A stretch of DNA of 64,000 nucleotides, from the IMG/VR virus record IMGVR_UViG_3300032272_000011, positions 2,628-66,627 of that record; one strand, 5' to 3'. Below are positions 1,996 through 52,012 of this stretch, piece by piece. Position 1 is the first letter of the stretch. Each line of letters starts with the position of its first letter. Position numbers and translations under genes: made by a program. The stretch comes from a virus (lineage: Duplodnaviria; Caudoviricetes). The notes beneath the pieces were generated by a model, which worked only from the letters and a program-made list of their open reading frames with translations, was not told the DNA's origin and searched no databases.

Positions 1996-2001
1996 GATGG
2001 T

Positions 2002-2079: not shown

Positions 2080-2106
2080 GTTTTCACGCCCGCACTGCGC
2101 CATGCT
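2078..2106 (+). promoter_or_regulatory. sigma70-like promoter, leaderless start
   Basis: TTGTTT-N17-CATGCT-N6-ATG(2113); no SD. Confidence 0.45.
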
Positions 2107-2112
2107 TCCGGT

Positions 2113-3564: not shown

Positions 3565-3625
3565 AAAGAGACAAACGTACCTTTCACCTTCCGTTTTCTT
3601 TGAAACCCTCCACTGGAGAATCCTC

Positions 3626-11679: not shown

Positions 11680-12512
11680 AAGACTTCGACGCAATCGTCA
11701 TCGGTGCGGGCATCTTCGGCTGCACCATCACCCGCGCTCTTCGCGACGCCGGCAAGTCAGTCCTGCTGGTCTCCAAGAAGGAGCGCCTCTCGGGCTCCCA
11801 GGCGTCCGGCAACCTGATGAAGCCGGGTTGGTTTGCGGGGCTCGGCAAGGCGGTGTACGAACCGGCTCTGGCGCTCCTCGAGAGGCAGTACGGGATCCGC
11901 GACCTCACCTTCGCCGCCGGCAAGGGCGTGGTCCGCAAGGACGTGAAGGTGCACTGGGTCCCGCTGGAAAGCGTGCTCAGCGAGGAGAAGCTCGATGCCA
12001 CCGTCACCGATGTCGGTGCGGACGGCACCGTCTTCGTTGAGGGCCAAGGTGAGTTCCGCGCGCCGCTCGTCGTGGTGTGCGCAGGCTACTGGACCCAACA
12101 GCTCCTCGGCACCGGACCCACCGTGGTCGGCAAGCAGGGAGTCAGCCTCCGCTGGACCGAAGAGGAGTGCCCCGCGCAGATCACCCCCTGGGCACCGTAC
12201 AAACAGATCGTCCAGTACAGCTACATCACGGGGCCCGGCAAGTCGGCCATGTGGGCCGGAGACGGTACGGCGATCCTCCCCAAGAACTGGACCGGCGAGC
12301 GGATGCGACAAAGCGTGGACCGCGTCATCAAGCACGTCGGTGCTCACACGAAGCCGCTCCTCGTCCAGGGCATCCGTCCCTACGTCAAGGGGGCCAAGCC
12401 CTGCTTCCTCGAGGAGCTGTGGCCGGGCACGTGGGTCGCGACCGGCGGCGCCAAGAACGGTCAGCTCGCTGCCGGGTGGGCCGCACACAAGATCCTGGAG
12501 GCAACGTCATGA
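11676..12512 (+). CDS. FAD-dependent oxidoreductase (PaMx11 gp47-like flavin-dependent lyase)
   Basis: IVIGAGIFG Rossmann motif, GIRPY, ATGGAKNG; sits in the modification cluster. Confidence 0.8.
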   Translation: MKDFDAIVIGAGIFGCTITRALRDAGKSVLLVSKKERLSGSQASGNLMKPGWFAGLGKAVYEPALALLERQYGIRDLTFAAGKGVVRKDVKVHWVPLESVLSEEKLDATVTDVGADGTVFVEGQGEFRAPLVVVCAGYWTQQLLGTGPTVVGKQGVSLRWTEEECPAQITPWAPYKQIVQYSYITGPGKSAMWAGDGTAILPKNWTGERMRQSVDRVIKHVGAHTKPLLVQGIRPYVKGAKPCFLEELWPGTWVATGGAKNGQLAAGWAAHKILEATS

Positions 12513-12694
12513 GCTACCCCACGTGCCCTCACTGCGGAACGCAGATCACCGAGGGAGAGGACTACGCTCCCGCCGTCTCCGTGTGGGGATCCGACGGTGG
12601 ACGAGTCGCGCTCTGGTGTTCGGAGTGCGACAAGGACTTCTGGGTGGAGGAGCTGGTGAAGCGCACCTTCACGAGTTTCAAGGAGGAGACATGA
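12509..12694 (+). CDS. Zinc-ribbon protein
   Basis: CPHC...CSEC; coupled on both sides. Confidence 0.6.
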   Translation: MSYPTCPHCGTQITEGEDYAPAVSVWGSDGGRVALWCSECDKDFWVEELVKRTFTSFKEET

Positions 12695-13116
12695 TCAAGA
12701 TACGCACAGCGGGCATCCACGAGCACGACAAGGTGATGGAGATCGCCAAGACGTCGAAGTACACGCGGGACTTCAGCCACATGATGTTCAGCGGCGAGGC
12801 AGCCTACCAGAAGGAGTGGATCCGGGTCGCCGAGGAGGAGAGCACCGGTGTGCTCGTCGGGTTCTACTGCGTGCGCCACAAGGTCCGCAGCCCCGAGACC
12901 ACCATGTACTTCATCACCGTGCGCCCAGGGTTCACCAAGCTGGGGGTGGCGTCCGCGCTCCTCGAGGACCTCAAGGCGCAGTGCCCCAACAACCGAATCG
13001 TTCTCAACGTTATGAACGACAACAAACCTGCGCTTGGCTTTTACGCCAAACACGGGTTCAATACTGTTGGTCCTGCCCTGAAGGGCAAGGGCGTCCAACT
13101 TTCACTGGAGTGGTAA
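12691..13116 (+). CDS. GNAT acetyltransferase (PaMx11 gp48-like)
   Basis: VRPGFTKLGVASALL motif A; NKPALGFYAKHGF. Confidence 0.85.
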   Translation: MIKIRTAGIHEHDKVMEIAKTSKYTRDFSHMMFSGEAAYQKEWIRVAEEESTGVLVGFYCVRHKVRSPETTMYFITVRPGFTKLGVASALLEDLKAQCPNNRIVLNVMNDNKPALGFYAKHGFNTVGPALKGKGVQLSLEW

Positions 13117-13117
13117 C

Positions 13118-13351
13118 ATGAGCCAGAACGAAGCCGACAAGGTCGTCAAGTCCCAGAAGAACGACCCGTGCGGCTGCACCAACACTGTCTACGCGGACGA
13201 CACCTCCAACTTCTTTCCCTGCCTGGGCCACGCGCTCCTCAACGCTGGAGTCATGCTCCAAGCAGCCGGGCAGCGGTGGGCCCAGATCCAGGAGCAGGCC
13301 GTCGCGGCTGGCAGGCAGCAGCGCATGAAGAAAGGTCCCCACAAGCGATGA
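13118..13351 (+). CDS. Hypothetical protein
   Basis: Fills gap, coupled to kinase. Confidence 0.5.
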   Translation: MSQNEADKVVKSQKNDPCGCTNTVYADDTSNFFPCLGHALLNAGVMLQAAGQRWAQIQEQAVAAGRQQRMKKGPHKR

Positions 13352-13941
13352 TCTTCAACATCCGTGGAACCAGTGGGTCGGGCAAGACCACACTGGTGAA
13401 AGACGTCATCGGCTGGCTCACTGCCGAAGGCGCGGTGCTCCACGAGCACTTCCATCCTGGCCGCAAGCAACCACTGTGGTTCCAGCTCACCCGGCGCAAC
13501 GGTGAGGTGTGGTCGTTCATCGGCCACTACAACGCAGCGTGCGGCGGGTGCGACACCATCAACAGCATGGACTGGGTCTTCGAACTGGTGAAGGAGCGCC
13601 ACTTCGCCTCCGACCATCTGGTCTTCGAGGGGCTCATCGTTTGCTCCGATGCCCGGCGCATCATCGAGCTGGCAAAGGAGCACCGGGGTCAGCTCAAGGT
13701 CATCAACCTCAAGACCGACAAGGAGGTTTGCCTGGAAGGCATCCGCGCCCGACGCACCGCGCGTGGGGTCGACCCCAACGCACCCTTCAAGGAGTCCGTG
13801 GAACGCAACGTCAAGGCCAAGATGCGCACCTGCGAGAAGACGGCGGAGCGCATCGAGGCGGAGGCTCCCGGCACGGTAAAGCACATGACCCGTGACGAGG
13901 CCCGAGACTACCTGTACCAGTACGTGAGGTGGACGCCTTGA
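13348..13941 (+). CDS. P-loop kinase, probable 5-hmdU DNA kinase
   Basis: NIRGTSGSGKTT, GGCDTI, VFEGLIV; context. Confidence 0.75.
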   Translation: MIFNIRGTSGSGKTTLVKDVIGWLTAEGAVLHEHFHPGRKQPLWFQLTRRNGEVWSFIGHYNAACGGCDTINSMDWVFELVKERHFASDHLVFEGLIVCSDARRIIELAKEHRGQLKVINLKTDKEVCLEGIRARRTARGVDPNAPFKESVERNVKAKMRTCEKTAERIEAEAPGTVKHMTRDEARDYLYQYVRWTP

Positions 13942-14798
13942 AGCCCAACTACACAGAGTTCTTCGACTTCGCGAAGGAGCGGGAGGCGATCCGCGTCCAG
14001 AAGGCAAACCACGCTCGTCTGCCGTGGACCAAGGACAAGGTGCTGCAGGAGTTCCGCTTCTGCAACGTCTTCAGGGAGGACGACAAGACCACGAAGTGGT
14101 TCCGAGGAGAGATCCGCAGTCCGCTCCGCAACGACCCTTCCGTCCTCTTCGCCACCGTCGCCTTCCGCTGGTTCAACCGCATCAGCACCGGCAGGGCGCT
14201 GCTCCCCTGGCTCACTATGGAGAAGGAGTGGAACGAAGACGAGGTGCTGTGGGCCTTGAACGACATCGTCCGTGAAGGTCGCCCAATCGTGACCGGCGCC
14301 TACGTCATCAAGACTCCCAACGGGGCCCCGAAGTCGGAGGGCATCGTCGAGTGCTTGCGCCGGTTCCGCAAGCTGCACGAAAAACAGATCCTGGAAGTCG
14401 CATCGGCGGACGATGCCACGCTCGAGAAAGTGCACGAGCGCCTCATGTATGTGCCCTATCTGGGCTCGTTCATGGCCTACGAGATCGTGACGGACCTGCG
14501 CCACACCTACCTGCTCCGCGATGCGCCGGACATCATGACGTGGGCGGCGGCTGGCCCAGGGGCAGCGCGGGGGCTGGGGTGGCTGTACAACGGTGCCCCG
14601 GCAGGGTACAACTACCAGAGCACCAAGGGGCAATCCGAGTGCCTCTGGAGGATGAGACAAGTGCTCGCCGAGAGCGCCATCCAGTGGCCCATGGACCGCA
14701 TCTGGGAGATGCGCGAAGTCGAGCACACTCTGTGCGAATACGACAAGTGGAAGCGCGGTCACGATGGTGACCACCTGAAAAGGAAGTACCGACCATGA
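13929..14798 (+). CDS. alpha-glutamyl/putrescinyl thymine pyrophosphorylase, clade 1 (aGPT-Pplase1)
   Basis: FRFCNVFREDDKTT, FRWFN, LGSFMAYEIVTDL, EHTLCEYDKW. Confidence 0.8.
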   Translation: MDALKPNYTEFFDFAKEREAIRVQKANHARLPWTKDKVLQEFRFCNVFREDDKTTKWFRGEIRSPLRNDPSVLFATVAFRWFNRISTGRALLPWLTMEKEWNEDEVLWALNDIVREGRPIVTGAYVIKTPNGAPKSEGIVECLRRFRKLHEKQILEVASADDATLEKVHERLMYVPYLGSFMAYEIVTDLRHTYLLRDAPDIMTWAAAGPGAARGLGWLYNGAPAGYNYQSTKGQSECLWRMRQVLAESAIQWPMDRIWEMREVEHTLCEYDKWKRGHDGDHLKRKYRP

Positions 14799-15133
14799 AC
14801 CGTGACAAGCTCACCTGGAGAGAGCGCTTAGTCAAGCTGCACTTCGCCTTGGTCAGCACCCAGCCCAGCTCGTCCATGAGCAAGAAGCAGCACGCGAAGT
14901 GGGCCAAGAAGCACCACGACGAGATGGTCTTGGACCTCTGGCTCCATCACCTGGAGCACGAGGGGGCGCGGACCACCGAAGGCAAGACGTGGCTGAACCA
15001 CGTGCGCGACAACGAGTTTCCGAAAGTCAGCTCGGCCATCAAGCTGGCGGAGTGGTTGACCGACGCAACGCCTGACATGTACGACGGCGGGATGTCGGTC
15101 TGGGAAGAGTTCACTGGGAGATTTTCAACGTGA
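14795..15133 (+). CDS. Hypothetical protein
   Basis: Coupled on both sides. Confidence 0.5.
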   Translation: MNRDKLTWRERLVKLHFALVSTQPSSSMSKKQHAKWAKKHHDEMVLDLWLHHLEHEGARTTEGKTWLNHVRDNEFPKVSSAIKLAEWLTDATPDMYDGGMSVWEEFTGRFST

Positions 15134-16116
15134 TACACGTCAACACCCGGAATCCAGATGAGGGGTTGCAGGAGGTAGCCAAGCACCTGCTTGTCCACGG
15201 TTTCACCCGCAATAGCCGCAACGGCACCGTGCTCGCCTACGGCGAACCCGTCATGACCGAAGTCACCCACCCCACCGAGCGTGCGGTGCTCTGGGCCAAG
15301 CGGGACGCCAACCCGTTCTTCCACGTCATGGAAGCGCTGTGGATGCTGCACGGCGGTCAGGACGTGGCCTTCGTGAAGGAGTTCAACTCCAAGATCGTCA
15401 ACTACAGCGATGACGGGGCGACGTTCAACGGTGCCTACGGTCACCGGTGGCGCCACCACTTCGGCAAGGACCAGCTGAAGCTGATCGTCGCGGCCCTGAA
15501 GAAGGACCCCCAGTGCCGGCGCCAAGTGCTCAGCATGTGGGACGGCCACCGGGACCTCGGGCTCCAGTCCAAGGACCTGCCCTGCAACACCCACGCCTAC
15601 GTGCAGATCGATGCGATGGACAAGCTCGCTCTCACGATGTGCAACCGCTCCAACGACCTCGTGTGGGGCGCCTTCGGGGCGAACGTCGTCCACTTCACCT
15701 TCCTCCAGGAGTACCTCGCCTCCGCCCTGGGCAAGGAGATGGCACCCTACCGCAGCATGAGCGCCAACCTCCACTGCTACCTGGACATCCACGAGGGTCT
15801 CCTCCGGGACTTGGCCAGCCGCGACTTGGTGCCCAGCACCTACAGGTCAATGGAGGAGAGAGAGCGGTGCCCGCTGATGTCACTGCCCGTGAACCGATGG
15901 CAGCGTGAGCTGGACATGTTCATGGCTGACACCGAGACCAGCTTCGACGACCCGTTCTTCACGACCGTCGCTGTGCCGATGCGCAACGCCTGGAGGGCCT
16001 TCAAGAACAAGGCCGACCCTCAGCGAGTCGATGCCGCTCTCGAGCACGTGAAGGACATCGGAACCTGGGACTGGAACGCAGCGTGCGCGACGTGGCTCCA
16101 TCGGAGGTTGAAGTAA
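15130..16116 (+). CDS. Thymidylate-synthase homologue, probable dUMP hydroxymethylase
   Basis: RRQVLSMWD, DLPCN, NRSNDLVWGAFGAN, SANLHCY. Confidence 0.85.
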   Translation: MIHVNTRNPDEGLQEVAKHLLVHGFTRNSRNGTVLAYGEPVMTEVTHPTERAVLWAKRDANPFFHVMEALWMLHGGQDVAFVKEFNSKIVNYSDDGATFNGAYGHRWRHHFGKDQLKLIVAALKKDPQCRRQVLSMWDGHRDLGLQSKDLPCNTHAYVQIDAMDKLALTMCNRSNDLVWGAFGANVVHFTFLQEYLASALGKEMAPYRSMSANLHCYLDIHEGLLRDLASRDLVPSTYRSMEERERCPLMSLPVNRWQRELDMFMADTETSFDDPFFTTVAVPMRNAWRAFKNKADPQRVDAALEHVKDIGTWDWNAACATWLHRRLK

Positions 16117-16640
16117 TGGCTTGGCCCACACAGAAGCTCGTCACGGCTCTCCGCGAAGCAGGAGCCGTCCGACGCTGCCACGCCACCCCCTGGCATGGTG
16201 AGTACAACATCGCCACCCACAGCTACAACGCAGTCAACCTGCTCTTGATGCTGCACCCAAACCCGAGCATGGAACTGGTGAAGGCCATACTCTGGCACGA
16301 CGTGCCGGAACGGTGGCTCGGAGACCTGCCCGCACCCGCGAAGTGGAGCAACGGAGAGTTCGCCAAGCTGTACGAATCGATGGAGCGCAAGGTGGAGTGG
16401 GTCATCGGGACCTACGTTCACCTCACCGCGAGCGAGCGAGTTTGGCTGCACGCAGTCGACAAGATAGAACTGCTGCTATCCGCCAAAGAACAGTTGGCTT
16501 CTGGGAACCAAGCTGCGGCACAATACGTAGCAGCGCTCCTGGGCTGGTTCAAGACCGCCGTGATGCCCCAGTCGTGCACTGACTTCGTGAACGAACACCG
16601 ATACGAAAGGCTCCCCGATGTCGTACCAACAGAATCTTGA
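16116..16640 (+). CDS. HD-domain (YfbR-like) deoxynucleotidase
   Basis: VRRCH, IATHSY, LWHDVPE..GDLPAPAK, DKIE. Confidence 0.8.
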   Translation: MAWPTQKLVTALREAGAVRRCHATPWHGEYNIATHSYNAVNLLLMLHPNPSMELVKAILWHDVPERWLGDLPAPAKWSNGEFAKLYESMERKVEWVIGTYVHLTASERVWLHAVDKIELLLSAKEQLASGNQAAAQYVAALLGWFKTAVMPQSCTDFVNEHRYERLPDVVPTES

Positions 16641-36089: not shown

Positions 36090-36133
36090 GGTTCCTTCTC
36101 CTTCAGGGAGGGGATTCTACCGTGCGGAGCGGA

Positions 36134-36188
36134 GCGAGCGGTGGGTGCCCTGGGCGAGGGGCGAGCGGGTGGGTGCCCTGGGCGAGGG
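36134..36188. repeat. 27/28-bp tandem duplication
   Basis: gcgagcg(g)gtgggtgccctgggcgaggg x2. Confidence 0.8.
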
Positions 36189-36544
36189 AGGAGAGGGGCT
36201 CCAGCAGCGCCGCTGGGGGAGCGGGGAGGCGCCCAGGGGGCTCAGCGCCGCCTTGCGCAGCAGCGGAAAGGCGGCGCTGAGCTGTGTGATCGATATAACT
36301 TCCTGGGGAAGAGGGGGTTGGGCTGGAAAAGCGCTGTTTTGCGGGAAGTTTGTGGAGCACTTGACAAGAGCGGAGTACCGGAGCAACACTATTGGGGGAA
36401 GGAGTTACGACGTTTTGAAAATCGGGAGTGCGATCTTATGGACCCCCTAAACGTCCTGCAAAGTGTGGTTTGCTCACGGACTCACGATTGTCGGCTGTTT
36501 CTGAGGGTGGTAACCTCCTGTGGCCCAGTGGAATGCAACGGAAT

Positions 36545-36752
36545 ACTCATGGATCTCTCTTTTCAAAAGAGAGAGTAGAGAGAGAAAGAGCGTATATAGG
36601 AGTCGAGAGAGCCTCCTCCTCCTCCGTAGCGTTTTGACGCTCTCACGTGAGTTCCATGAGTAATTGTGGGAACCCCCCTGGGCAGAGGGAGTTGCCATGC
36701 TCAAGTGTGACTCATGGATGGGTGCGGGGCGTGAGTCCATGAGTCACGTGAG
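36545..36752. repeat. Left boundary element (ACTCATGGA/CACGTGA motifs and purine tract)
   Basis: 36560-36602 matches reverse complement of 42027-42069 at 38/43; four ACTCATGGA/TCCATGAGT copies. Confidence 0.75.
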
Positions 36753-36771
36753 CAGTGTTAGGGGGATGTTA

Positions 36772-36811
36772 GGCGCGGCGATTTGGCGTGTGGCGCGGCG
36801 ATTTGGCGTGT
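36772..36811. repeat. 20-bp perfect tandem repeat x2
   Basis: ggcgcggcgatttggcgtgt x2. Confidence 0.85.
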
Positions 36812-36981
36812 GACGTGAGAATGTGGACTTGTCGGGTTGACGTGGGAAAAGGCGTTGGGTGCGGGCCCCATGCTCACCGAGGGGCTGTCGCCGATTTTGC
36901 GACGAGGTTCTTGGTGACTCCTGTCGAGCCAACAGGTTACGACGATTACGGCCCTTTAGTCAGCGATAAGAGCCCCCGGAT

Positions 36982-37080
36982 CGCTCTGAGCCTCCTGCCG
37001 ATCCTCTGAGCCTCCTGGACATCCTCTGAGCCTCCCCGGTTTCACGGCCGAGAGCCTCCTGCATCCTCTGAGCCTCCCGG
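36982..37080. repeat. ~20-bp imperfect tandem repeats
   Basis: atcctctgagcctcc core, 4 copies plus a partial. Confidence 0.85.
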
Positions 37081-37292
37081 GATTTGCCCGCGTGCGCTCG
37101 AGAGAGGAAAGGCGCGCCCCCGCGCGGGTTTGATCAAAGGCGCGCGGCGGAAAAGGTTCACGCCGGCAAACCTTTGCCTTGGCAAAGGTTCACGGCGGGA
37201 AAGGTTTTCGACGGCGCGCCTTTGGATAAAGGCAGACCTCCCCGTGCCTTTAGGCACGCGCCCCAGCCGGGGTCGGGCCCCGCCTACTCTCT

Positions 37293-37320
37293 CTATCGTC
37301 GATCGACGCCCGGGGCTTTA
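37293..37320 (-). promoter_or_regulatory. sigma28-type promoter (leftward)
   Basis: TAAA-N16-GACGATAG on minus strand. Confidence 0.65.
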
Positions 37321-37362
37321 CACGTTTCCAGAAACGTCTTTGAACACGTTTCTAAATACGTG

Positions 37363-37390
37363 TTATGGCCGGCGGCCCGATCGCCGATAA
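37363..37390 (+). promoter_or_regulatory. sigma28-type promoter
   Basis: TTAT-N16-GCCGATAA. Confidence 0.6.
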
Positions 37391-37457
37391 GAGAAGTGTC
37401 GGGGGGCGGTAAGTAAGCCGCCCCCGCCGCCCGCGCCCCCTACCGTTAGGTCCCGCC

Positions 37458-37811
37458 GTGCTAAAGCTCGTCCCCGCTAACCCGTCCCTCGTCGCCGATT
37501 TTGGCCTGCTTCCCCTGCCCGGCGGCGCCGCCCCCTTAGTCGCCTGGGATGTAACCTTTGCCGGCTCCCCGGATTCCCTGCTTTACGTGTCCGGTACCCG
37601 TACCGGCGGGGTGGCCGTGGTAATCGTTTCCCCCGACGATTGTTATACGGGGCGCGTATTTACCGCGTGGGTCGGGGCCGGGGCGGTTCCTTGGGTCCGG
37701 CGTTTCTTTCCGTCCGCGCGGGTTTCGGCCGCCGCCGCTAAGGCTGCTGGTCTGGCGCCTTTGGGCGGGGGCGCGTGCGTGGGTACCGCGTTTACCCCCG
37801 CCGCGCTGTAG
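37458..37811 (+). CDS. Early cassette protein, CA-free sense strand
   Basis: GTG start; 117 aa with no E, Q or H; own promoter. Confidence 0.6.
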   Translation: MLKLVPANPSLVADFGLLPLPGGAAPLVAWDVTFAGSPDSLLYVSGTRTGGVAVVIVSPDDCYTGRVFTAWVGAGAVPWVRRFFPSARVSAAAAKAAGLAPLGGGACVGTAFTPAAL

Positions 37812-37823
37812 GTTACCGCCGGG

Positions 37824-37864
37824 GCGCCTTTGGCCTTGGCGCTACGCGCCAAGGCCAAAGGCGC
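37824..37864. repeat. Perfect 19-bp hairpin with 3-nt loop
   Basis: gcgcctttggccttggcgc-tac-gcgccaaggccaaaggcgc. Confidence 0.9.
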
Positions 37865-37877
37865 GCCAAGAAACGTG

Positions 37878-37905
37878 TAAAGGCCGGCGCGCCGATCGCC
37901 GATAA
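37878..37905 (+). promoter_or_regulatory. sigma28-type promoter
   Basis: TAAA-N16-GCCGATAA. Confidence 0.75.
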
Positions 37906-37963
37906 AGAGAGTAGGCCGGGGGAGACCCGGCGCCCTACCCAACCCCCAACCCGGAGACGAACG

Positions 37964-38296
37964 ATGAGTAAGCTTTCCCACGACGCCGAGATGTGGAACG
38001 CCTTCGCTGGCGCCTGCGTTTTCCCGGACGGCACCGAACCTTTCTTCGCGGAAACCTCTCTGCAAAGCTACGACGCAATAATGGTTCTCGACAGCCAGGG
38101 TTACCCCGGCGAGGACCAGAAAACCGTTCTGACGCTGAACGTTATCGACAGCGAAGGAAACCCGAAAGAGGTCTGGGAGCGTAGCTTCAGCGATGAACTC
38201 ACCCGCGAAGAAATCATTCAGTGGGCGGGGGATATCGGAACCAGCGTCACGGAGAAGGAACTGCTGCTGGCCGGTTTCGTCCGCATTCCTTGCTAA
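37964..38296 (+). CDS. Early cassette hypothetical protein
   Basis: GGAGA SD; own promoter. Confidence 0.7.
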   Translation: MSKLSHDAEMWNAFAGACVFPDGTEPFFAETSLQSYDAIMVLDSQGYPGEDQKTVLTLNVIDSEGNPKEVWERSFSDELTREEIIQWAGDIGTSVTEKELLLAGFVRIPC

Positions 38297-38305
38297 GGAA
38301 ACGTG

Positions 38306-38333
38306 TAAAGGGCGCGGCGCCGATCGCCGATAA
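38306..38333 (+). promoter_or_regulatory. sigma28-type promoter
   Basis: TAAA-N16-GCCGATAA. Confidence 0.75.
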
Positions 38334-38392
38334 AGAGAGTAGGCCGGGGGTGACCCCGGCGCTGGCCCAACCCCGCGCCCGAAAGGCAACCC

Positions 38393-38638
38393 ATGAAGAA
38401 GCTAACCCGCTCCCAGGCCCGCTATCTCCTCGTCGAGGGCAAGAATATCGCTCGCCGCCTGCAGGTCATTACTACCCTCCTGGACGCCGCCTGCCCGGCC
38501 GGAGGGCCGCCCTCGGAGCTGGACGCCGAGTTCGCCTCGCCGGACGGCCAGGACTACTCGGAGGCCCTCCTCGGCGCCGTCCGAAAGGTTGCTGCCCACC
38601 TCGATTTGGACGCTGAAGACATCTTGGAAAACGCCTAA
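38393..38638 (+). CDS. Early cassette hypothetical protein
   Basis: Own promoter; its stop is the TAA of the next -35. Confidence 0.7.
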   Translation: MKKLTRSQARYLLVEGKNIARRLQVITTLLDAACPAGGPPSELDAEFASPDGQDYSEALLGAVRKVAAHLDLDAEDILENA

Positions 38639-38663
38639 AGGGCGCGGCGCCGATCGCCGATAA
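38636..38663 (+). promoter_or_regulatory. sigma28-type promoter
   Basis: TAAA-N16-GCCGATAA. Confidence 0.75.
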
Positions 38664-38702
38664 AGAGAGTAGGCCGGGGGAGTCCCGGCCTGGAGCCGAC
38701 CG

Positions 38703-38930
38703 ATGAAAACCGAAACCCGCATCTCCCCTACCCTTTCCCGCGTCGCCGTTGGCGGGGTCCTCCTGGATACCCTGAAAAGCCGCGCTGGAGCGCTGGTTTA
38801 CTTCGTCGCCGATGAACTTACGGACGAAGTTATCTTACAAACCTACGACAAAGCTGCGGCCGAGGAACTGTTCACCGCGCTAACTGTTATCGCGCCTGAA
38901 GATTCAGGCCCGGTCGTCCGGCGCCGCTAA
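38703..38930 (+). CDS. Early cassette hypothetical protein
   Basis: GGAG SD; own promoter. Confidence 0.7.
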   Translation: MKTETRISPTLSRVAVGGVLLDTLKSRAGALVYFVADELTDEVILQTYDKAAAEELFTALTVIAPEDSGPVVRRR

Positions 38931-39069
38931 AGGCACGCCCCGTGCCGCCTTTGCCCCTGGGCTAAAGGCAGCGCGGGGGAAGCATTTAGCCGGGCGCGCC
39001 TGGGTATGAACAGACTCCCCCGTGCCTTTAGGCACGCGCCCCAGGCCGGTCTCCCCCGGCCTACTCTCT

Positions 39070-39097
39070 TTATCGGCGCGATCCGGTCCGGTCTTTA
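39070..39097 (-). promoter_or_regulatory. sigma28-type promoter (leftward)
   Basis: TAAA-N16-GCCGATAA on minus strand, back-to-back with 39113. Confidence 0.7.
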
Positions 39098-39112
39098 GGC
39101 TTTTCTTTTTAC

Positions 39113-39140
39113 TAAAGCCAACCCCGCCGATCGCCGATAT
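39113..39140 (+). promoter_or_regulatory. sigma28-type promoter
   Basis: TAAA-N16-GCCGATAT. Confidence 0.75.
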
Positions 39141-39195
39141 AGAGAGTAGGCCGGGGGTGACCCGGCGACCCAACCCCGCGCCCGAAAGGCACCCG

Positions 39196-39528
39196 ATGAT
39201 GAACCTTGACGACCTGATCGAAGAGCTGACCGACCTGCGGACCGAACTCGCCCACTCACGCGGGATTTCCGAGGAAAAGGCGGGAGAGATCGAAGTGATG
39301 ATCGCCTACCAGCCAAACTACCCCCTGCGCGTAGGAATCAGCTCGGTGACGGGCTTCCAGGATTCCAACCAGCCCGTGTACCTTTCCTCGGGCGGCGAAA
39401 GCAACTACGTGACCAAAGAAGCGTGGGATGGCGGCTTAGTGGAGCTGGAGGACCTCTGCGAGTACTGCGGAAAACACGCGGAGGAAGAAATCTGCGAAGA
39501 GGCGCGGGATTGCGGCGAGCTGCTCTAA
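39196..39528 (+). CDS. Early cassette hypothetical protein
   Basis: Own promoter; IAYQPNYPL motif; C-terminal CxxC. Confidence 0.7.
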   Translation: MMNLDDLIEELTDLRTELAHSRGISEEKAGEIEVMIAYQPNYPLRVGISSVTGFQDSNQPVYLSSGGESNYVTKEAWDGGLVELEDLCEYCGKHAEEEICEEARDCGELL

Positions 39529-39546
39529 GGCGCGCCAGGAAACGCC

Positions 39547-39574
39547 TAAAGGCCCCGGCGCCGATCGCCGATAA
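39547..39574 (+). promoter_or_regulatory. sigma28-type promoter
   Basis: TAAA-N16-GCCGATAA. Confidence 0.75.
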
Positions 39575-39613
39575 AGAGAGTAGGCCGGGGGTGACCCGGC
39601 CTGGAGCCGACCG

Positions 39614-39880
39614 ATGAAGAAAATGACTGGATGCAAGCGTTGCGGGATGGCCGGGGTGGGGTTTGACACGCGCACTGGGTACCACTTGGCGTGTGCCGTT
39701 CTGGCGCAAGAAGCTTTCGTGGTGTACGACTTAGACCCTGAAAAGTGCTCTCACTGCGCGCATACGAAGTTTCGCCGGACCTCCGATTCTGTGGTCCCGT
39801 TTTGCGCCGAATGCGGCTGCAACCAGTTGCTTCGCGACCGGGCAGAAACGTCTAAAGCCGACGCCGCCGATCGCCGATAA
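39614..39880 (+). CDS. Early cassette Cys-rich protein
   Basis: Three CxxC; reads through the next promoter. Confidence 0.6.
   Translation: MKKMTGCKRCGMAGVGFDTRTGYHLACAVLAQEAFVVYDLDPEKCSHCAHTKFRRTSDSVVPFCAECGCNQLLRDRAETSKADAADRR
39853..39880 (+). promoter_or_regulatory. sigma28-type promoter
   Basis: TAAA-N16-GCCGATAA. Confidence 0.75.
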
Positions 39881-39940
39881 AGAGAGTAGGCCGGGGGAGA
39901 CCCGGTCGCTCGCCCAACCCCTCGCCCGAAAGGCACCCCG

Positions 39941-40261
39941 ATGCAAACCACCACCCCGAAGCTGACCCACTCTGGCTCCAAGGCTAACCTCTGGGAGGCT
40001 CTCCACGCCCGCGCTGCTTCGACCGTGAAGCACCACCTGTCGGACTTCTACCACGACGCCATGTGGATCGCGGCCCACCTCTCCGAGGGCCGGACCGGTC
40101 AGTTCTTCTACTCCTGGAACCTTTGCGGCACGCATATCGGGGAAGCAGTAAAGGAATACATGGAGGGCGGAAGCATCGTAACGGCCCCCATGGTGAAGGT
40201 TACCTGGGACCGCACTTCAGACGACGGCCGCGTTCGCTGGTCCGTTGAAGACGTTTCCTGA
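39941..40261 (+). CDS. Early cassette hypothetical protein
   Basis: Own promoter. Confidence 0.7.
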   Translation: MQTTTPKLTHSGSKANLWEALHARAASTVKHHLSDFYHDAMWIAAHLSEGRTGQFFYSWNLCGTHIGEAVKEYMEGGSIVTAPMVKVTWDRTSDDGRVRWSVEDVS

Positions 40262-40267
40262 AACGTC

Positions 40268-40295
40268 TTTAGGTCGGCGCGCCGATCGCCGATAA
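40268..40295 (+). promoter_or_regulatory. sigma28-type promoter
   Basis: TTTA-N16-GCCGATAA. Confidence 0.7.
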
Positions 40296-40335
40296 AGAGA
40301 GTAGGCTGGGGGAGACCCGGCCTGGAGACCCCGCC

Positions 40336-40587
40336 ATGAACCGCACCGCACGCCGAAGCCCTTCCGTCCTTTCCCTCGCAGCTACCCTCTGCGCCGCCAC
40401 CATCGAGGGGCACATCTCCCGCAAGCAGCTCAACGCCGTCCTCGAGACGCTCCAGGACGCCCACATGGGGTTCCAGATGGGGGCCGACTACGACCTGGAC
40501 GGCAACGGCCTGAAACAGGCGCAGGCAGATACCTTGCTCGAGATGCTGAATCACCTCGAGGATAGGTACCCCAAGAAAGGTGTTTGA
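40336..40587 (+). CDS. Early cassette hypothetical protein
   Basis: GGAGA SD; own promoter. Confidence 0.7.
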   Translation: MNRTARRSPSVLSLAATLCAATIEGHISRKQLNAVLETLQDAHMGFQMGADYDLDGNGLKQAQADTLLEMLNHLEDRYPKKGV

Positions 40588-40621
40588 TTTAGCGCGGACT
40601 GGGGGCGCCGATCGCCGATAA
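40588..40621 (+). promoter_or_regulatory. sigma28-type promoter with degenerate -35
   Basis: GCCGATAA at 40614; TTTA 22 nt upstream. Confidence 0.5.
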
Positions 40622-40681
40622 AGAGAGTAGGCCGGGGGTGACCCGGCCTCCCGCTCTGGCCCCTGACCGAAAGCTGATCCC

Positions 40682-40771
40682 ATGGATAACCTTTTCTCCC
40701 GCGTCGCTCGCCTGCTCGTCATCGGTTCCAGCGCTGGAAGCTTTCTCTCGCTCGTCGTAGTTTTCGCCTAA
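40682..40771 (+). CDS. 29-aa hydrophobic peptide
   Basis: MDNLFSRVARLLVIGSSAGSFLSLVVVFA; occupies a full cassette slot; below ORF-track cutoff. Confidence 0.45.
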   Translation: MDNLFSRVARLLVIGSSAGSFLSLVVVFA

Positions 40772-40796
40772 AGCTGACCCCGCCGATCGCCGATAA
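40769..40796 (+). promoter_or_regulatory. sigma28-type promoter
   Basis: TAAA-N16-GCCGATAA. Confidence 0.75.
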
Positions 40797-40842
40797 AGAG
40801 AGTAGACCGGGGCTGACGCCCCCTTGCCCAGGACCCAACGCC

Positions 40843-41097
40843 ATGAAGACCGCAACCCTCACCAAGACCCAAGAGCGCGTGCTCGACCAGATCCACCTCG
40901 CCCTGATCCACGTCACCTGCAAGAACCCCTGCGGCCTCTGGGGCCTGTACGTGACCGACACCGGCAAAGGGTACGCCGTCAAGGGCATCCACAAGGCGAC
41001 GCTGAATGCGCTCGTCAAGGCCGGAAAGGCGAAGTGGCGCCGCATTGACTACCACCAGCTGAACATTCACTACGTCCTCGAATCAGTGCTGGACTGA
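40843..41097 (+). CDS. Early cassette protein, wHTH-like
   Basis: AGGA SD; IHKATLNALVKAGKA. Confidence 0.65.
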   Translation: MKTATLTKTQERVLDQIHLALIHVTCKNPCGLWGLYVTDTGKGYAVKGIHKATLNALVKAGKAKWRRIDYHQLNIHYVLESVLD

Positions 41098-41116
41098 AGG
41101 CGCGCCAAGAAAGGTG

Positions 41117-41144
41117 TAAAGCGTAGGCGCTACGTCGCCGATAA
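41117..41144 (+). promoter_or_regulatory. sigma28-type promoter
   Basis: TAAA-N16-GCCGATAA. Confidence 0.75.
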
Positions 41145-41207
41145 GAGAGGTATAAGGGGGCGCGGCGCGCGTCCTCCCCCGCCCGGCCCCGTAACGGTAA
41201 CCTTGCC

Positions 41208-41441
41208 ATGCCTACCTCTTCCTGCCCCGTCGTCCTTACCGCCGCTAACCTTGCTTACGACGCGCTTCTCGCTAACGGGGCTGCGGCCGTCGCTAACGGG
41301 TTCCCGCTCTGCTCGGACGGTTACCCCCTGGCCTCGTCGCTGCTCCCCCTCTGCGCCGCCCTCGCCGTCCTGGAGGGTCGGGGTCGGCTCGCTGTAAGCG
41401 TCGCTGCCGACTTCCTTTCTGAGGCTGAAGGTATGGTGTAA
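41208..41441 (+). CDS. Early cassette protein, CA-free sense strand
   Basis: 77 aa hydrophobic; no Q, H, K or I; own promoter. Confidence 0.6.
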   Translation: MPTSSCPVVLTAANLAYDALLANGAAAVANGFPLCSDGYPLASSLLPLCAALAVLEGRGRLAVSVAADFLSEAEGMV

Positions 41442-41656
41442 GCCGTCTTTGTTAGGGGTGGGCGTGCGCTGCTAAGGCGCGCGCGTCTGTCTCTTCGTCG
41501 TGGAGAAAGTAAGGAGGGGGGTACCTTCGAGGGCGTGGCGCCACTGCCCCTACTCCAGCCACCAAAATCCATTACCCCACCCAAATCAGTTGTCATACTT
41601 TCCAGAATCGCCTCAAACCACTTGTCGTTCGTTCGTCTTCAGCCGATATCTCTTGT

Positions 41657-41905
41657 ATGACTACTCAAGACAAAGCCAACCTCGCAGCGTACAACGACGG
41701 TCTCCGTGTCAGCAAGAAGGGGCTCGGCCTCACTGCCTCAGGGAAGTACGACTACCGCTCTCTCGAGAGGTTGTTCGCCCGAGGGTTCCGCCGCTTCTGT
41801 CGTGGGCTGGACGCCGCTGAGGCCCAGGACGAGTTCATGCACGGGTTCGTGGACGGGCTCCACACCTCCGCCACCCACTTCGAGTGCGGCCGCCCCCGCG
41901 CGTAG
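41657..41905 (+). CDS. Hypothetical protein (probably leaderless)
   Basis: TTGTCG...GCCGATAT-N7-ATG upstream. Confidence 0.55.
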   Translation: MTTQDKANLAAYNDGLRVSKKGLGLTASGKYDYRSLERLFARGFRRFCRGLDAAEAQDEFMHGFVDGLHTSATHFECGRPRA

Positions 41906-42165
41906 TACTCACGTGACTCACGTCCCTGCAAACACCAAAGCACGCTAAACCCTTCTGGCCCAGGAGGTACTCACGCAACTCACGTGACTCAAGCTTTTTC
42001 AAGGTTGCGAGCAGAGAGCAGCGAGCCTCCTCTATACACCCTTTCTCTATCTCCTCTCTCTTTTGAAAAAGAGTGAGTTCCATGAGTAAACCATTGCAAG
42101 TACCTCCCCGGCAGCGGTTTGCCGTGCTCATGGAACGGTTTTACGACTTGAGCATTCCATGAGTC
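41906..42165. repeat. Right boundary element (inverted partner of 36545-36752)
   Basis: CTCACGTGACTCA and TCCATGAGT motifs; 42027-42069 inverted match to left element. Confidence 0.75.
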
Positions 42166-42339: not shown

Positions 42340-43005
42340 GTGGCAAAGAAGACCAGCAAAATCGAGGAGCAGTGGCCTGACGGCGTGGACCCCACCAAGC
42401 TGAAGGCAAAGCCCAACTATCGCGGCACGCGCGCGAAGGGGCCGAACAAGAGTAAGGGTGAGAAGGGTCCGAACCTCCACCCCTACACGAAGCTGACTCC
42501 CGCGATCAAGGCCGACATCGTCAGCTGCCTCTCCAAGCGCTTCCACATCGGCAACACCTGCGCCGCGATCGGCGTCAGCTACGGCTCATTCAACAATGAG
42601 CGCAAGAAGGACCCGGAGTTCGCCGCAGCCATCATGGAGGCCAAGCGCCTCTACACGGAGCTGATCGAAGGCACCATTCACTGCCGAGCGATCGACGGGT
42701 GGAAAGAGCCGGTGTTCGGCAAGATCGACAAGGTCTACAAAGACGAGGACGGCAACCTCGTCAAAGAGAGCACCACCGGGGTCGTGGGCCACGTCACCAA
42801 GTACGACAACAAGCTGCTCCTGGCCATGGCCAAGCGGTTCATGCCGGATGAGTGGAACGCCACTCAGAAGATCGAGCAGAAGAGCGAAGTGTCCGGCTCC
42901 CTCGCCGTAGACTCCTCTCTCACCCTCGCTGACTTGGACGCTGAAACGAGAAAGGCGCTGCGGTCGTTCCTACAGAAGGCCAAGCGCAATGAATCGGGAG
43001 ATTGA
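42340..43005 (+). CDS. terS: Terminase small subunit
   Basis: HTH (IGNTCAAIGVSYGSF), RAIDGWKEPVF, KYDNKLLLAM; precedes TerL. Confidence 0.75.
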   Translation: MAKKTSKIEEQWPDGVDPTKLKAKPNYRGTRAKGPNKSKGEKGPNLHPYTKLTPAIKADIVSCLSKRFHIGNTCAAIGVSYGSFNNERKKDPEFAAAIMEAKRLYTELIEGTIHCRAIDGWKEPVFGKIDKVYKDEDGNLVKESTTGVVGHVTKYDNKLLLAMAKRFMPDEWNATQKIEQKSEVSGSLAVDSSLTLADLDAETRKALRSFLQKAKRNESGD

Positions 43006-44494
43006 ATCTGTCCTCGCGTCAGCAGCGCGTAACCCGGCCGCAGCGCTGTGGGAGCTGGACACGATCGACGCGGAGACCTCCCTCCTCGACTTCATCCGCC
43101 TGACCTGGGACATCCTCGAGCCGGGCCGCACCTTCGTCGAAGGGTGGGCCGTCACCGCCATCTGCGAGCATCTCGAGGCCGTCACCCGAGGCGAGATCCG
43201 CAACCTCCTAATCAACGTGCCCCCCGGCTGCATGAAGAGCCTCACCACCAACGTCTTCTGGCCGGCGTGGGAGTGGGGGCCCAAGAACATGCCCACCCTG
43301 CGGTACGTCAGCGCGTCCTACGCGCAGGAGCTGACGATCCGAGACAACCGGCGCTGTCGTAACATCATCGTCAACGAGCAGTACCAAGCTCGCTGGGGCG
43401 ACCGCTTCAAGCTGATGTCGGACCAGAACGCCAAGACGAAGTTCGAAAACGACCACACGGGCTTCAAGATCGCGACCTCCGTTGGCGGCCTGGGCACTGG
43501 TGAACGTGGCGACCGCTTCATCATCGACGACCCCCACAACATCAAGGACGCGGAGTCGGACGCGGTGCGCGAGAGCGCGATTCAGTGGTTCACGGAAGTG
43601 GTTCCCACCCGTATCAACGACGCGGAGAAGTCGGTCCAGCTCTGCATCATGCAGCGGGTTCACGAGCGAGATGTCTCGGGCCTGATCATCGCGCAGGAGC
43701 TGGGATGGGACCACCTGATGCTCCCCATGGAGTACGAAGGCGACCACCCCTCGCTCACCAAGACCACCGTCGACTTCCACGACCCGCGCACCAAGGACGG
43801 CGAGCTGCTCTGGCCGGAACGCTTCTCGAGGCGCTACCTGGAGGAGGACCTGAAGCCGAGGCTACGGGCCTGGGGCGGTGAGTACGCCGAAGCAGGACAG
43901 CTCCAGCAGCGCCCCTCACCTCGTGGTGGTGGTGACTTCAAGCGCGAGTGGTGGCAGTTCATCGATTCCCCTCCAAGCAACATCCGCGCGACCGTTCGCG
44001 GGTGGGACCTCGCGGCGTCCAAGGACCGGGGCGCGTTCACGGCCGGCGCGAAGATGAGCATCACGCACGACGGCGAGATCATCATCGAAGACATCGTCCG
44101 CGCCCAGCGCTCTGCCCTGGGCGTCGAGAAGATGATCCACGCCTGCGCCGAGCAGGACGGGCCGAACTGCACCGTCGACCTGCCTCAGGACCCTGGGCAA
44201 GCAGGAAAGGCTCAAAAGGGGCACTACCTGCGGATGTTCCACGGTTACGATATCCGCTCCTCGCCGGAGACAGGCGCCAAGGAAGACCGGGCGCGACCTC
44301 TCGCGGCTCAGGCGGAGGGAGGCAACGTCTTCCTGGTGCGGGGTGCTTGGAACGATGCGTTCATCGCTGAGTCGTCGTTGTTCCCGAACGGGACCTACAA
44401 GGACCAAGTCGATGCGTGCTCACGTGCCTACGCGAGGCTGATCGCACGCAAGAAGAAATCGCTCGGCGGAGCACCGAAGGTGATCACGGGATGA
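42989..44494 (+). CDS. terL: Terminase large subunit
   Basis: INVPPGCMKS, FIIDDPH, MQRVHERD, RGWDLAA, KDQVDA. Confidence 0.92.
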   Translation: MNREIESVLASAARNPAAALWELDTIDAETSLLDFIRLTWDILEPGRTFVEGWAVTAICEHLEAVTRGEIRNLLINVPPGCMKSLTTNVFWPAWEWGPKNMPTLRYVSASYAQELTIRDNRRCRNIIVNEQYQARWGDRFKLMSDQNAKTKFENDHTGFKIATSVGGLGTGERGDRFIIDDPHNIKDAESDAVRESAIQWFTEVVPTRINDAEKSVQLCIMQRVHERDVSGLIIAQELGWDHLMLPMEYEGDHPSLTKTTVDFHDPRTKDGELLWPERFSRRYLEEDLKPRLRAWGGEYAEAGQLQQRPSPRGGGDFKREWWQFIDSPPSNIRATVRGWDLAASKDRGAFTAGAKMSITHDGEIIIEDIVRAQRSALGVEKMIHACAEQDGPNCTVDLPQDPGQAGKAQKGHYLRMFHGYDIRSSPETGAKEDRARPLAAQAEGGNVFLVRGAWNDAFIAESSLFPNGTYKDQVDACSRAYARLIARKKKSLGGAPKVITG

Positions 44495-46709: not shown

Positions 46710-48356
46710 ATGCCCACGACTGTTGACAACACGATTGGCTCCACCGGCACCTACTCCACCCCGACGGCATGGGAGGTGGACACTGACAACAATCACGTGA
46801 CGGCGGACGAGCACCACCGTGGGTTGCTCCAGTCACAGGCCCACGCGCTCGGCACCACGCGCCTGCAGATCAACGGTTCGACCACCAGCGCGACTCAGTT
46901 CAGGGAGATGGTGCCGGACGACGGCGCGATCTTCGATCCCGAGGCGGAGACCGGCGCACACCTCACCTACAGCGGCACCCTCGGGGCGCTCCACTTCATC
47001 GAAGCCAACTTCCGCTTCGGTGGTGGCATCGGGATCATCATGAGCGGAGGCGCGACGGGTGAGGTGATTCTCACTCAGGTGGCGGACCAAGTGACGGACG
47101 GCGTCACGATCATCAACCGCTGCACCGGCACCCTCACCTACGGCATTGAGGGATCGTTCACCGCTGCGGGATTGGTCGCCCGCAACGTCATATACATCCA
47201 CGACACCACCAGCGCCATGACCGCCGTGTTTACGGATCTGAACGAGGTGTCAAACTGTACGACCCACGCCCAACAGGGGTCGTTCACGCGGATGAGCGAG
47301 GGGAACGCTTCCAAAACCCAGATTGTCAAGAACTGCGCAGCCTTCGGCTCCTCCGGTGACCCGTTCGACGCGAACACCACGGCAACCACGTGCACCAGTG
47401 ACTTCGCCATCGCCGGGGGTGAAGGCACCGGCTCCCTGACCGATACGGACGAGTTCACTGACCCGGCCAACAGCGACTACTCCCTGAAGGACACCGGGTC
47501 CTCGTACCAGAACGGTGCGGACCTCAGCGCGGACTTCCTCCTGGACTACAACCAGGATACCCGCGACACGTGGGACATCGGGGCGCTCGCCCACGCCGAC
47601 TCCATCCCCGCCACGTCCACGAACGGACCGGCGGTCCTCACCGCTGCCGCAGCAACCATGGCGTCCTCGGGCGTCGAGACCATGGAGGGTGCCACCGCTC
47701 CCTCCGCTGGCGCGGCGACCATGACCTCGTCCGGCTCTTCGCTCCTCGGCGCAGTCGGCGCACCAACCCTTGTCGGTGCCGCTGCCACTATGGCTTCGAG
47801 CGGTTCCGCAGCTGCTGAAGGCTCCGCCCCCTTGGAAACCCCCGCCGCACTACTCAACGCCTCTGGCACCCTGGGCTATACCGGGACCTCGGGCCTCACT
47901 GCCCCCGCTGCAACCTTCGCCACCACAGCGGCGTCTGGTACTCCACTGTCCGTGGTCAAGTCCTTTGCTGCTTGGCTGTGCGGCAAGACGGGCCAAGACG
48001 ACTCCATGTACCTCGCGAACAAGCGAACGCTTCAGTACACCGTGGGCTCGCTCGCGGACGAAGCGGTCGTGGAAGACCTCACCCCCTACGGTGACATCAA
48101 GTGGACCCTGTCCCGAATCAGTCCTTCCGGTCAGATCCTCACTGCTTCGCCCGTGGTCGAGAAGAAGCTGTCCGACCTCACCCTCAGCGCCACCTTGGTG
48201 TCCGGCATCGTGAACGTGCCGCTCCTCAACGAGGACACCGAAGCCCTCCAGCCCGGCACGTACCACATGGAGCTGGAGCTGTTCGACGTGTTCGGTGAGG
48301 CGGCAGTGGTGGCAACCGGAACCATGACGTTGGTCGCCAACGTGGAGAATACCTGA
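46710..48356 (+). CDS. Virion structural protein (beta-helix-like N-terminus, Ala/Ser linker, Ig-like C-terminus)
   Basis: 548 aa Thr/Ala/Gly-rich; DFLLDY...WDIGA. Confidence 0.55.
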   Translation: MPTTVDNTIGSTGTYSTPTAWEVDTDNNHVTADEHHRGLLQSQAHALGTTRLQINGSTTSATQFREMVPDDGAIFDPEAETGAHLTYSGTLGALHFIEANFRFGGGIGIIMSGGATGEVILTQVADQVTDGVTIINRCTGTLTYGIEGSFTAAGLVARNVIYIHDTTSAMTAVFTDLNEVSNCTTHAQQGSFTRMSEGNASKTQIVKNCAAFGSSGDPFDANTTATTCTSDFAIAGGEGTGSLTDTDEFTDPANSDYSLKDTGSSYQNGADLSADFLLDYNQDTRDTWDIGALAHADSIPATSTNGPAVLTAAAATMASSGVETMEGATAPSAGAATMTSSGSSLLGAVGAPTLVGAAATMASSGSAAAEGSAPLETPAALLNASGTLGYTGTSGLTAPAATFATTAASGTPLSVVKSFAAWLCGKTGQDDSMYLANKRTLQYTVGSLADEAVVEDLTPYGDIKWTLSRISPSGQILTASPVVEKKLSDLTLSATLVSGIVNVPLLNEDTEALQPGTYHMELELFDVFGEAAVVATGTMTLVANVENT

Positions 48357-51555: not shown

Positions 51556-51612
51556 AACAGCAACCACAGGTTTCGTCCAAGGTAGACGGGGCTGATTGAA
51601 GGAGACAAGTAA

Positions 51613-51984: not shown

Positions 51985-52012
51985 TTGGCGATCCCCCAGA
52001 GAAAGGAAAACC

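Follow-up and report, generated by a model that had tools for sequence, protein, structure and literature searches.

Strand-specific purge of (C/G)A from two transcription units of a predicted thymidine-hypermodifying phage

Results

Two units of a promoter array are purged of CA

The window analyzed here is a 64,000-nt stretch of DNA from a virus of the Caudoviricetes (Duplodnaviria), and corresponds to the last 64,000 nt of the 66,627-nt IMG/VR record IMGVR_UViG_3300032272_000011 (positions 2,628 to 66,627). Within it, positions 37350-41150 hold an array in which 11 rightward copies of a ~60-nt element each lie ahead of one small gene, and the units headed by the first and last of these copies are purged of the dinucleotide CA on the sense strand. 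The conserved core of the element consists of TAAAG, a 16-nt spacer and GCCGATAA, and is followed by a short leader hairpin; the eleven + strand copies (37383-41137) match G[CA]CGATA[ATG], most of them with TAAAG located 16 nt upstream. In the sigma-28 (FliA/WhiG) consensus a -35 TAAA and a -10 GCCGATAA are separated by a spacer of ~15-16 nt, and on the basis of this agreement we assign the elements to the sigma-28 (FliA/WhiG) type of predicted promoter. No sigma-70 consensus matches were found among the array elements or in the region, and no sigma factor gene was found in the phage, which implies that a host FliA-like factor would serve the array. When read on the - strand, the element resembles a hairpin followed by a T-rich terminator. 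Nine of the copies are standard sigma-28-type promoters (37898..40830, + strand), each of which precedes a small + strand gene, and none of these nine units is purged.

The first purged unit coincides with a CA-free run on the + strand (37346..37850) that comprises a promoter, a 5' leader with a hairpin, the candidate open reading frame (ORF) ORF1 and a 3' region reaching into the loop of a terminal hairpin. Its predicted promoter (37354..37397) contains TTAT instead of TAAA at -35 and GCCGATAA at -10 (37383-37390), and has GAGAAGTGT after the -10 box where the standard copies have AGAGAGTAGG. ORF1 (37458..37811, + strand) spans 117 codons from a GTG start, has GC fractions of 0.71/0.61/0.73 by codon position, lacks a clear ribosome-binding site and would encode an orphan protein without Glu, Gln or His. 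As judged from sequence and fold, the terminal hairpin (37824..37864, + strand) has a perfect 19-bp stem and a 3-nt loop, and the first CA after the run (37850-37851) lies in its descending arm. The second purged unit (41108..41542, + strand; 435 nt) contains a single CA at 41207-41208, which is formed by the base preceding an ATG and the A of that ATG. This unit begins with a sigma-28-type promoter (41108..41150, + strand) that carries TAAAG at -35 and GCCGATAA at 41137-41144, and continues with ORF2 (41208..41441, + strand; 77 codons, ATG start), an orphan devoid of His and Gln; the purge extends ~100 nt beyond its stop codon. The two units share a variant element (GCCGATAA then GAGARGTRT), whose exact motif occurs nowhere else in the window, and neither ORF is preceded by a GA-containing Shine-Dalgarno motif.

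The leaders of the purged units align with those of the standard units, and TA stands where the latter have CA or GA. Replacements of this kind need G-to-T as well as C-to-T changes, which argues for recoding in place. Because two unrelated orphans are purged not only in their ORF but also in the leader and 3' region, selection acts on the nucleic acid and not on the protein. A coding role for ORF1 and ORF2 is plausible from their sequences. No locus related to either unit was found in IMG/VR, no ORF2 homologue was found among 5.8 billion proteins, and a search of 1.8 billion representatives with ORF1 returned only itself and two weak low-complexity matches. The protein Atlas yielded no usable match for ORF1, and its structure model has a predicted local distance difference test (pLDDT) score of 0.38. 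We also considered and rejected a non-coding RNA function for the units, for which there was no Rfam match above noise and the fold z-scores were -1.9 (driven by the terminal hairpin) and 0.06. An antisense function of the TG-free strand was set aside as well, as no promoter was found to direct leftward transcription into the islands and the elements of standard type are terminator-like on the - strand.

The purge is strand-specific and far beyond chance

An earlier note on this DNA, made from its letters without database searches, had reported that 37347-37849 holds no CA against roughly 17 expected, and that TG is common on the same strand. Our counts bear out both statements: this 503-nt stretch (A 47, C 176, G 168, T 112) contains 0 CA on the + strand versus 16.4 expected from the local base composition, and it contains 26 TG. 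The exact CA-free run is 505 nt long, in a window that has 4166 CA in its 64000 nt (one per 15.4 nt on average), and the number of runs of such length expected in the whole window is 10^-10.7. The note had asked whether null models could produce such stretches. Neither of those that we used for island 1 ever gave 0 CA: 20000 mononucleotide shuffles of 37347-37849 averaged 16.5 CA and never had fewer than 4, and in 20000 synonymous recodings of ORF1 that followed the phage's codon usage the mean was 11.4 and the minimum 2. A second CA-free run (41208-41542; 335 nt) is expected 10^-5.9 times in the window, and synonymous recodings of ORF2 reached 0 CA with P = 2.5e-4. In 400-nt segments over the whole 66.6-kb genome, CA and GA together averaged 57.5 per segment, whereas the two islands have 5 and 13 and the next lowest value is 27.

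The deviation is limited to a small set of dinucleotides. With the protein of ORF1 held fixed, the z-scores are -4.5 for CA, -3.1 for GA, +7.8 for TA and +4.0 for TT; only CA, GA, AC and AG are low, TA, TT and AT are high, and TG and TC on the + strand are at expectation. ORF2 behaves similarly, and control and neighbouring units show no comparable deviation when treated in the same manner. The codon-level claims of the note also hold, namely that Glu, Gln and His are missing from ORF1, that GA is confined to its five Asp codons, whose number sets the minimum count, and that all 11 A-starting codons follow a T- or A-ending codon (8 and 3, respectively). In ORF2, GA is confined to Asp and Glu codons. 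Overall, the third base before A-starting codons is T 14 times and A 4 times, without a single C or G; before other codons, these two prevail at this position. His and Gln, whose expected frequency is 5.8%, are both lost from the two proteins. C or G precedes a fraction of 0.20 and 0.25 of all A in the two purged units as compared to 0.72 genome-wide, and among the nine standard units this fraction is 0.45 in one and 0.56-0.72 in the other eight. Island 1 contains 26 TA versus 10.5 expected, and its G+C content is 68% (63% for the window), with C still accounting for 35% of the bases.

On the sense strand the avoided word is thus (C/G)A, corresponding to T(G/C) on the template: since the sense strand lacks CA and has GA at its minimum, the template has no 5'-TG, and its 5'-TC are limited to those imposed by Asp or Glu codons. 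This agrees with the proposal that the template is without TG and minimises TC. It also agrees with the judgement that double-strand restriction fits poorly, as the island has 0 CA and 26 of the complementary TG, so that depletion of both strands is not seen.

The phage carries a thymidine hypermodification cluster

The genes of the window fall into a siphovirus-like structural module, identified by Pfam (terminase at 42989-44494, Mu-type portal, capsid, tail tube and tape measure), and a replication and nucleotide module, also from Pfam (SNF2 helicase, Dda-like helicase, ribonucleotide reductase, family A polymerase and primase-helicase). Between the two modules sits a thymidine hypermodification cluster (11995..16640, + strand) that was recognized from Pfam and PHROGs matches and from synteny with gp46-52 of Pseudomonas phage PaMx11 (Abidjanvirus), whose gene order it shares. 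The cluster opens with a GNAT protein (11995-13116, +), in which Pfam places the GNAT domain at the C-terminal end, and continues with a P-loop kinase (13168-13941, +) that is a candidate 5-hydroxymethyldeoxyuridine (5-hmdU) DNA kinase according to Pfam and synteny. Its matches to HMUD2 (8.5e-4) and HMUDK_HMUD1 (5e-3) are weak and both fall under the Pfam cut-offs; by position it is syntenic with gp49 of PaMx11, and a related genome, G003, has a homologue. Next to the kinase is a protein of the HMUDK_hel / aGPT-Pplase family (13929-14798, +; PF18723, E 1.4e-44) that is 44-47% identical to proteins of Epa5, Ab18 and PaMx11. A thymidylate-synthase homologue (15130-16116, +; PF00303 3.2e-19, phrog_5131 2.8e-109), predicted to be a dUMP hydroxymethylase, and an HD hydrolase (16083-16640, +; Pfam/PHROGs and synteny) complete the cluster. 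Biochemical work has shown that gp46-gp49 of PaMx11 produce 5-acetylaminomethyl-dU by way of a 5-hmdU DNA kinase. Gene content and synteny therefore support placing this phage among the thymidine hypermodifiers of PaMx11 type, and its modified base is probably the same 5-acetylaminomethyl-dU. No near-identical cultured phage was found, and the terminases nearest to that of this phage are 50-65% identical. Among sequencing runs, contigs of this metagenomic genome occur in a sediment metagenome, which is probably its source, and to a small extent in a soil run; these contigs revealed no genome ends or variants.

The record is described as having a direct terminal repeat, which measures exactly 127 nt in this phage and 61 nt in G003. 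A repeat of this kind is typical of an assembler k-mer overlap of a circular assembly and not of a physical terminal repeat, so that the ends of the record were not taken as physical genome ends.

Several further features surround the array. Two copies of the promoter element point leftward on the - strand (37260-37346 and 39048-39107), each divergent from a rightward copy and each followed by a homologous ~77-nt leader (37195-37271 and 38973-39049). A 43-nt inverted repeat with 88% complementarity (36560-36602 and 42027-42069) flanks the whole early cassette. Directly to the left of island 1, ~1.2 kb of DNA (36100-37340) has no convincing ORF and is dense in short direct repeats (28-nt, 20-nt and 23-27-nt), and may be an origin or a regulatory region. 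On the other side, the last early unit is separated from the structural module by a spacer (41543-41660) that is unusually rich in CA, in CCA/CAA words, and that includes an extra GCCGATAT box at 41642, just ahead of the first late-module gene.

Purged islands occur in a minority of related phages

To place the islands among their relatives, we scanned 22 whole genomes with HMUDK_hel (including M6 and PaMx11) and six terminase relatives in which HMUDK_hel was not found. Strong non-trivial islands occur in three of the 22 HMUDK_hel carriers (this phage, G003 and G051), and in each case the purged words belong to the set TG/TC/CA/GA. M6, PaMx11 and 17 other carriers (19 of the 22 scanned) have no comparable island, and one genome in which HMUDK_hel was not found (G010) has an island of a different kind. 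The purge in this phage is on the template strand only, whereas in G003 and G051 it affects all four dinucleotides on both strands. The G003 island covers 2.6 kb upstream of the terminase, where TC, TG, GA and CA occur 0-8 times per 200 nt and TA is raised threefold, and its purge is strongest in intergenic segments. That of G051 (IMGVR_UViG_3300033069_001356; 51326-52389, L184:11326-12389) consists of ~1 kb of non-coding, repeat-rich and promoter-like DNA with TATAAT-like boxes and (GTAGCG)n repeats. In this segment T followed by C or G makes up 0.06 of T, A preceded by C or G makes up 0.01 of A, and TA occurs 125 times as compared to 44 expected.

Other relatives have purges that differ in the words removed. 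In a 13.8-kb fragment (L033; IMGVR_UViG_3300037042_003043), the early region 1-3616 is purged of TG:CA, with 3 CA and 9 TG where about 186 and 208 are expected, and is enriched in TC, GA and CG. The CA and TG that survive in L033:1-3470 belong to start codons (GTG at 732 on the + strand; GTG at 586 and 3169 and ATG at 3264 on the - strand), apart from one TG at position 11, and 990-2735 contains no CA or TG whatever. Within this region (1022-1934) there are two sigma-28-type promoter units, each with GGAGG, an 8-nt spacer and a conserved ATT AAC GCT CCC, which open frames at 1035-1421 (128 codons) and 1467-1934 (155 codons). Because every canonical start contains TG, these frames probably use ATT as their start codon; no homologues of the putative ATT-start proteins were found. 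A search for longer relatives or contigs that would extend L033 towards possible modification genes found none. A 491-nt stretch in a 62% G+C phage (L038:6839-7329, identical to L079:3365-3855) is without TC on the coding strand of two small, ordinary-looking genes, in which Phe is written as TTT and Ser as AGC, and TG is not depleted. The contig in question (L038/G018) ends inside the primase gene, where the modification cluster would follow. Finally, G010 (IMGVR_UViG_3300033073_000904) has 1.4 kb (47194-48609; L105:7194-8609) without AG, CT, CC or GG on both strands, in which CG occurs 239 times versus 85 expected and a protein-like ORF lacks Gly, Pro and Trp. Only nucleotide-metabolism genes were found in G010 (a thymidylate-synthase homologue, dCMP deaminase, dUTPase and a polymerase A-uracil-DNA glycosylase (UDG) fusion), and none of them accounts for the AG/CT/CC/GG purge. 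Avoidance of protospacer-adjacent motifs of clustered regularly interspaced short palindromic repeats (CRISPR) systems was considered for the GG/CC and AG/CT words of G010 and set aside, since it misfits the one-strand CA purge. Purine-purine-free runs in G059 and G050 were discarded as trivial codon repeats.

Discussion

A possible template free of modifiable thymidines

The dinucleotides missing from the two templates have a counterpart in the literature on thymidine hypermodification. Restriction sites that resist cleavage in M6, ViI and phiW-14 DNA contain TG or TC, a context that the earlier note had named and that is indeed present in the published work (PMC6449724). In the same report the M6 kinase is stated by the authors to modify TG, with the enzyme data being unpublished (PMC6449724), and in the Pbunavirus F8/14-1 the hypermodified T lies within a TG motif (PMC12191111). 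In vitro, E. coli RNA polymerase transcribes 5-hydroxymethyluracil (hmU) templates better than T templates, and treatment of hmU DNA with the 5-hmdU kinase cuts transcription to about 10% of the hmU level (PMC6457204); bulky major-groove groups block bacterial polymerases, probably at initiation rather than at elongation (PMC4838386).

We tentatively favor a reading in which selection keeps the templates of two early units free of modifiable thymidines, and regard it as possible, stopping short of calling it probable. It is preferred because the purged set equals the context reported for the pathway that the phage encodes, and because two other carriers have been purged of the same set, there on both strands and in DNA that is non-coding. 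Under this proposal, selection on the nucleic acid would have recoded two complete early transcription units, such that their templates contain no T followed by G, and retain T followed by C only where it is imposed by an Asp or Glu codon. T(G/C) is the context reported for phages with a 5-hmdU DNA kinase, and we infer that it applies to this phage as well. The two templates would then stay free of the bulky adduct, forming unmodified islands while the rest of the genome is decorated. The benefit may be that host RNA polymerase, carrying a sigma-28-type factor, reads these templates unimpeded, or alternatively that stalling and transcription-coupled incision are avoided. The suggestion that host polymerase reads an unmodified template had been made in the earlier note for "the first-expressed gene". 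Its first part draws support from the cluster, the TG/TC match and the two carriers that share the purge, and is opposed by the 19 carriers without an island; no support was found for the second, as two of 11 array units are purged, and these are the first and last by position. Slightly less likely than our favored reading is the generalization that thymidine-hypermodifying phages write 'holes' into their own modification map by means of primary sequence, which would make hypermodification a cis-encoded, strand-resolved regulator of transcription. Such holes would be either whole transcription units purged of T(G/C) on one strand or promoter regions purged on both, and would include genes recoded to escape modification, which here would have lost His and Gln and in L033 apparently adopted ATT starts.

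Several observations weigh against the idea that the templates are kept unmodified. The absence of an island from M6, PaMx11 and 17 other carriers implies that host polymerase is not generally in need of an unmodified template, and within the array itself only two of 11 units show a purge. Each ORF of the islands still has 37-41 T(G/C) on its sense strand, which would leave one strand of the duplex modified. The purges of relatives differ: L033 is purged of TG:CA and enriched in TC, L038 lacks TC alone, with the purge on the coding strand, and G010, in which HMUDK_hel was not found, purges AG/CT/CC/GG instead. Inhibition in vitro has been placed at initiation (PMC4838386), yet purged and unpurged units have promoters of similar appearance. 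The proposal is further weakened by the sources of the TG/TC context, which are restriction surveys and unpublished enzyme data from enzymes that are not of the PaMx11 type.

Other explanations of the purge

The same pattern could arise if the RNA, and not the DNA, were the target. The two mRNAs would then be kept free of (C/G)A to escape a dinucleotide-reading agent of the host or phage, such as an endoribonuclease or an RNA-modifying toxin, and the products of the purged units would still be made while other transcripts are disabled. We consider this explanation, the main rival, unlikely overall, though it also fits the islands of this phage. The purge is on the RNA-like strand, runs across the transcription unit including its untranslated parts and is confined to the transcript; however, the template-strand model predicts strand and transcript confinement equally. 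The only CA near the 3' end of unit 1 are placed inside the 19-bp stem, GA-containing Shine-Dalgarno motifs are missing ahead of both ORFs, and the TC-free coding strand of L038 covers two normal-looking genes. A precedent for dinucleotide specificity is also available in CmdT, which ADP-ribosylates the adenine of GA in single-stranded RNA and thereby blocks translation (PMC11618068). In the literature that we surveyed, GA is the only documented dinucleotide specificity of this kind, and no agent specific for CA or (C/G)A was found. Moreover, an mRNA-level agent leaves unexplained the purges of G003, G051, L033 and G010, which are on both strands and in non-coding DNA, and the words removed match the T(G/C) context of the pathway that the phage itself encodes.

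A nuclease that reads DNA is a less likely target than RNA, and we judge it improbable that the islands exist to remove sites, modified or not, so that early-needed DNA survives. T5 first-step-transfer DNA lacks certain restriction sites, and the both-strand purges of L033, G003, G051 and G010 would suit an agent that reads the duplex. In addition, END nucleases of Pseudomonas, members of the phospholipase D (PLD) family, attack the hypermodified genomes of Yuavirus, Abidjanvirus and Pbunavirus, the group to which this phage is related, early in infection (PMC12191111). Against this stand the one-strand purge seen here, which leaves T(G/C) on the other strand and the duplex still a target, and the consideration that cuts at any other place in the genome would be lethal to the phage all the same; neither a host nor a defence system was identified for it. 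A mutational footprint, in which a context-specific deaminase or a process like repeat-induced point mutation (RIP) converts CA to TA on the exposed non-template strand, is very improbable. The number of missing CA (about 16) is roughly equal to the excess of TA in island 1, but the G+C content is raised and not lowered, C remains abundant, the GA purge needs the G-to-T transversions that are seen in the homologous leaders, in relatives other dinucleotides are purged and TC, GA and CG, not TA, have taken their place, and the open reading frames are preserved. Effectively excluded, finally, is an artefact of chance or composition in two orphan ORFs rich in Ala, Gly, Val and Pro. The composition of the proteins is biased and the ORFs are candidate coding regions only, but recodings of ORF1 never reached 0 CA and those of ORF2 did so at very low frequency, and the purge occurs twice and reaches into the non-coding flanks.

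Comparison with known systems

In its pathway genes the phage resembles M6, ViI, phiW-14 and PaMx11, which use a 5-hmdU DNA kinase and amino acid:DNA transferase pathway, and the dinucleotides purged from its templates are exactly the TG/TC context reported for that kinase pathway. Published work on hypermodification describes sites genome-wide; here, in contrast, regions or single strands are purged of such sites, and M6 and PaMx11 have no such regions. Our search of the literature on modification contexts and motif avoidance found no account of phage transcription units or promoter regions purged of a dinucleotide.

The islands share with restriction-site avoidance the removal of a short word by selection, sometimes locally in first-used DNA; nuclease motifs are avoided, for example, in the early region of T7 and in the first-step-transfer DNA of T5. 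They differ from it in that the word is a dinucleotide removed from one strand of single transcription units, two amino acids are lost and no cognate nuclease is known. CmdTAC shows that an anti-phage effector can read an A-ending dinucleotide in single-stranded RNA, and the islands minimise the GA on which it acts. The word that they lack completely is CA, however, not a reported target of CmdT, and no such system is linked to the host of this phage. A further parallel is the suppression of CpG and UpA in animal RNA viruses, which is sensed by ZAP and RNase L and is genome-wide and partial. Both involve dinucleotide-level recoding of viral genes under the pressure of a nucleic-acid sensor, whereas the purge described here is complete, local and strand-specific, and occurs in a DNA phage.

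Implications

This phage adds a case in which the purge is strictly strand-specific and the template strand is cleared of T(G/C). Should the purge single out DNA that has to remain free of modification, sequence by itself would reveal the context specificity of hypermodification enzymes, as well as the genes and control regions that are intolerant of the marks, and the handling of hypermodified templates by polymerase, repair and defence would become a testable question. If the target is RNA, the islands would instead be a sign of undiscovered effectors with (C/G)A as their target, and of phage genes, probably with counter-defence roles, that have to escape them. In practice, the orphan ORFs, the odd codon usage and the apparent non-ATG starts of the relative L033 are a warning for gene callers. 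Either way, dinucleotide-purged islands would provide a cheap computational flag for first-line phage genes.

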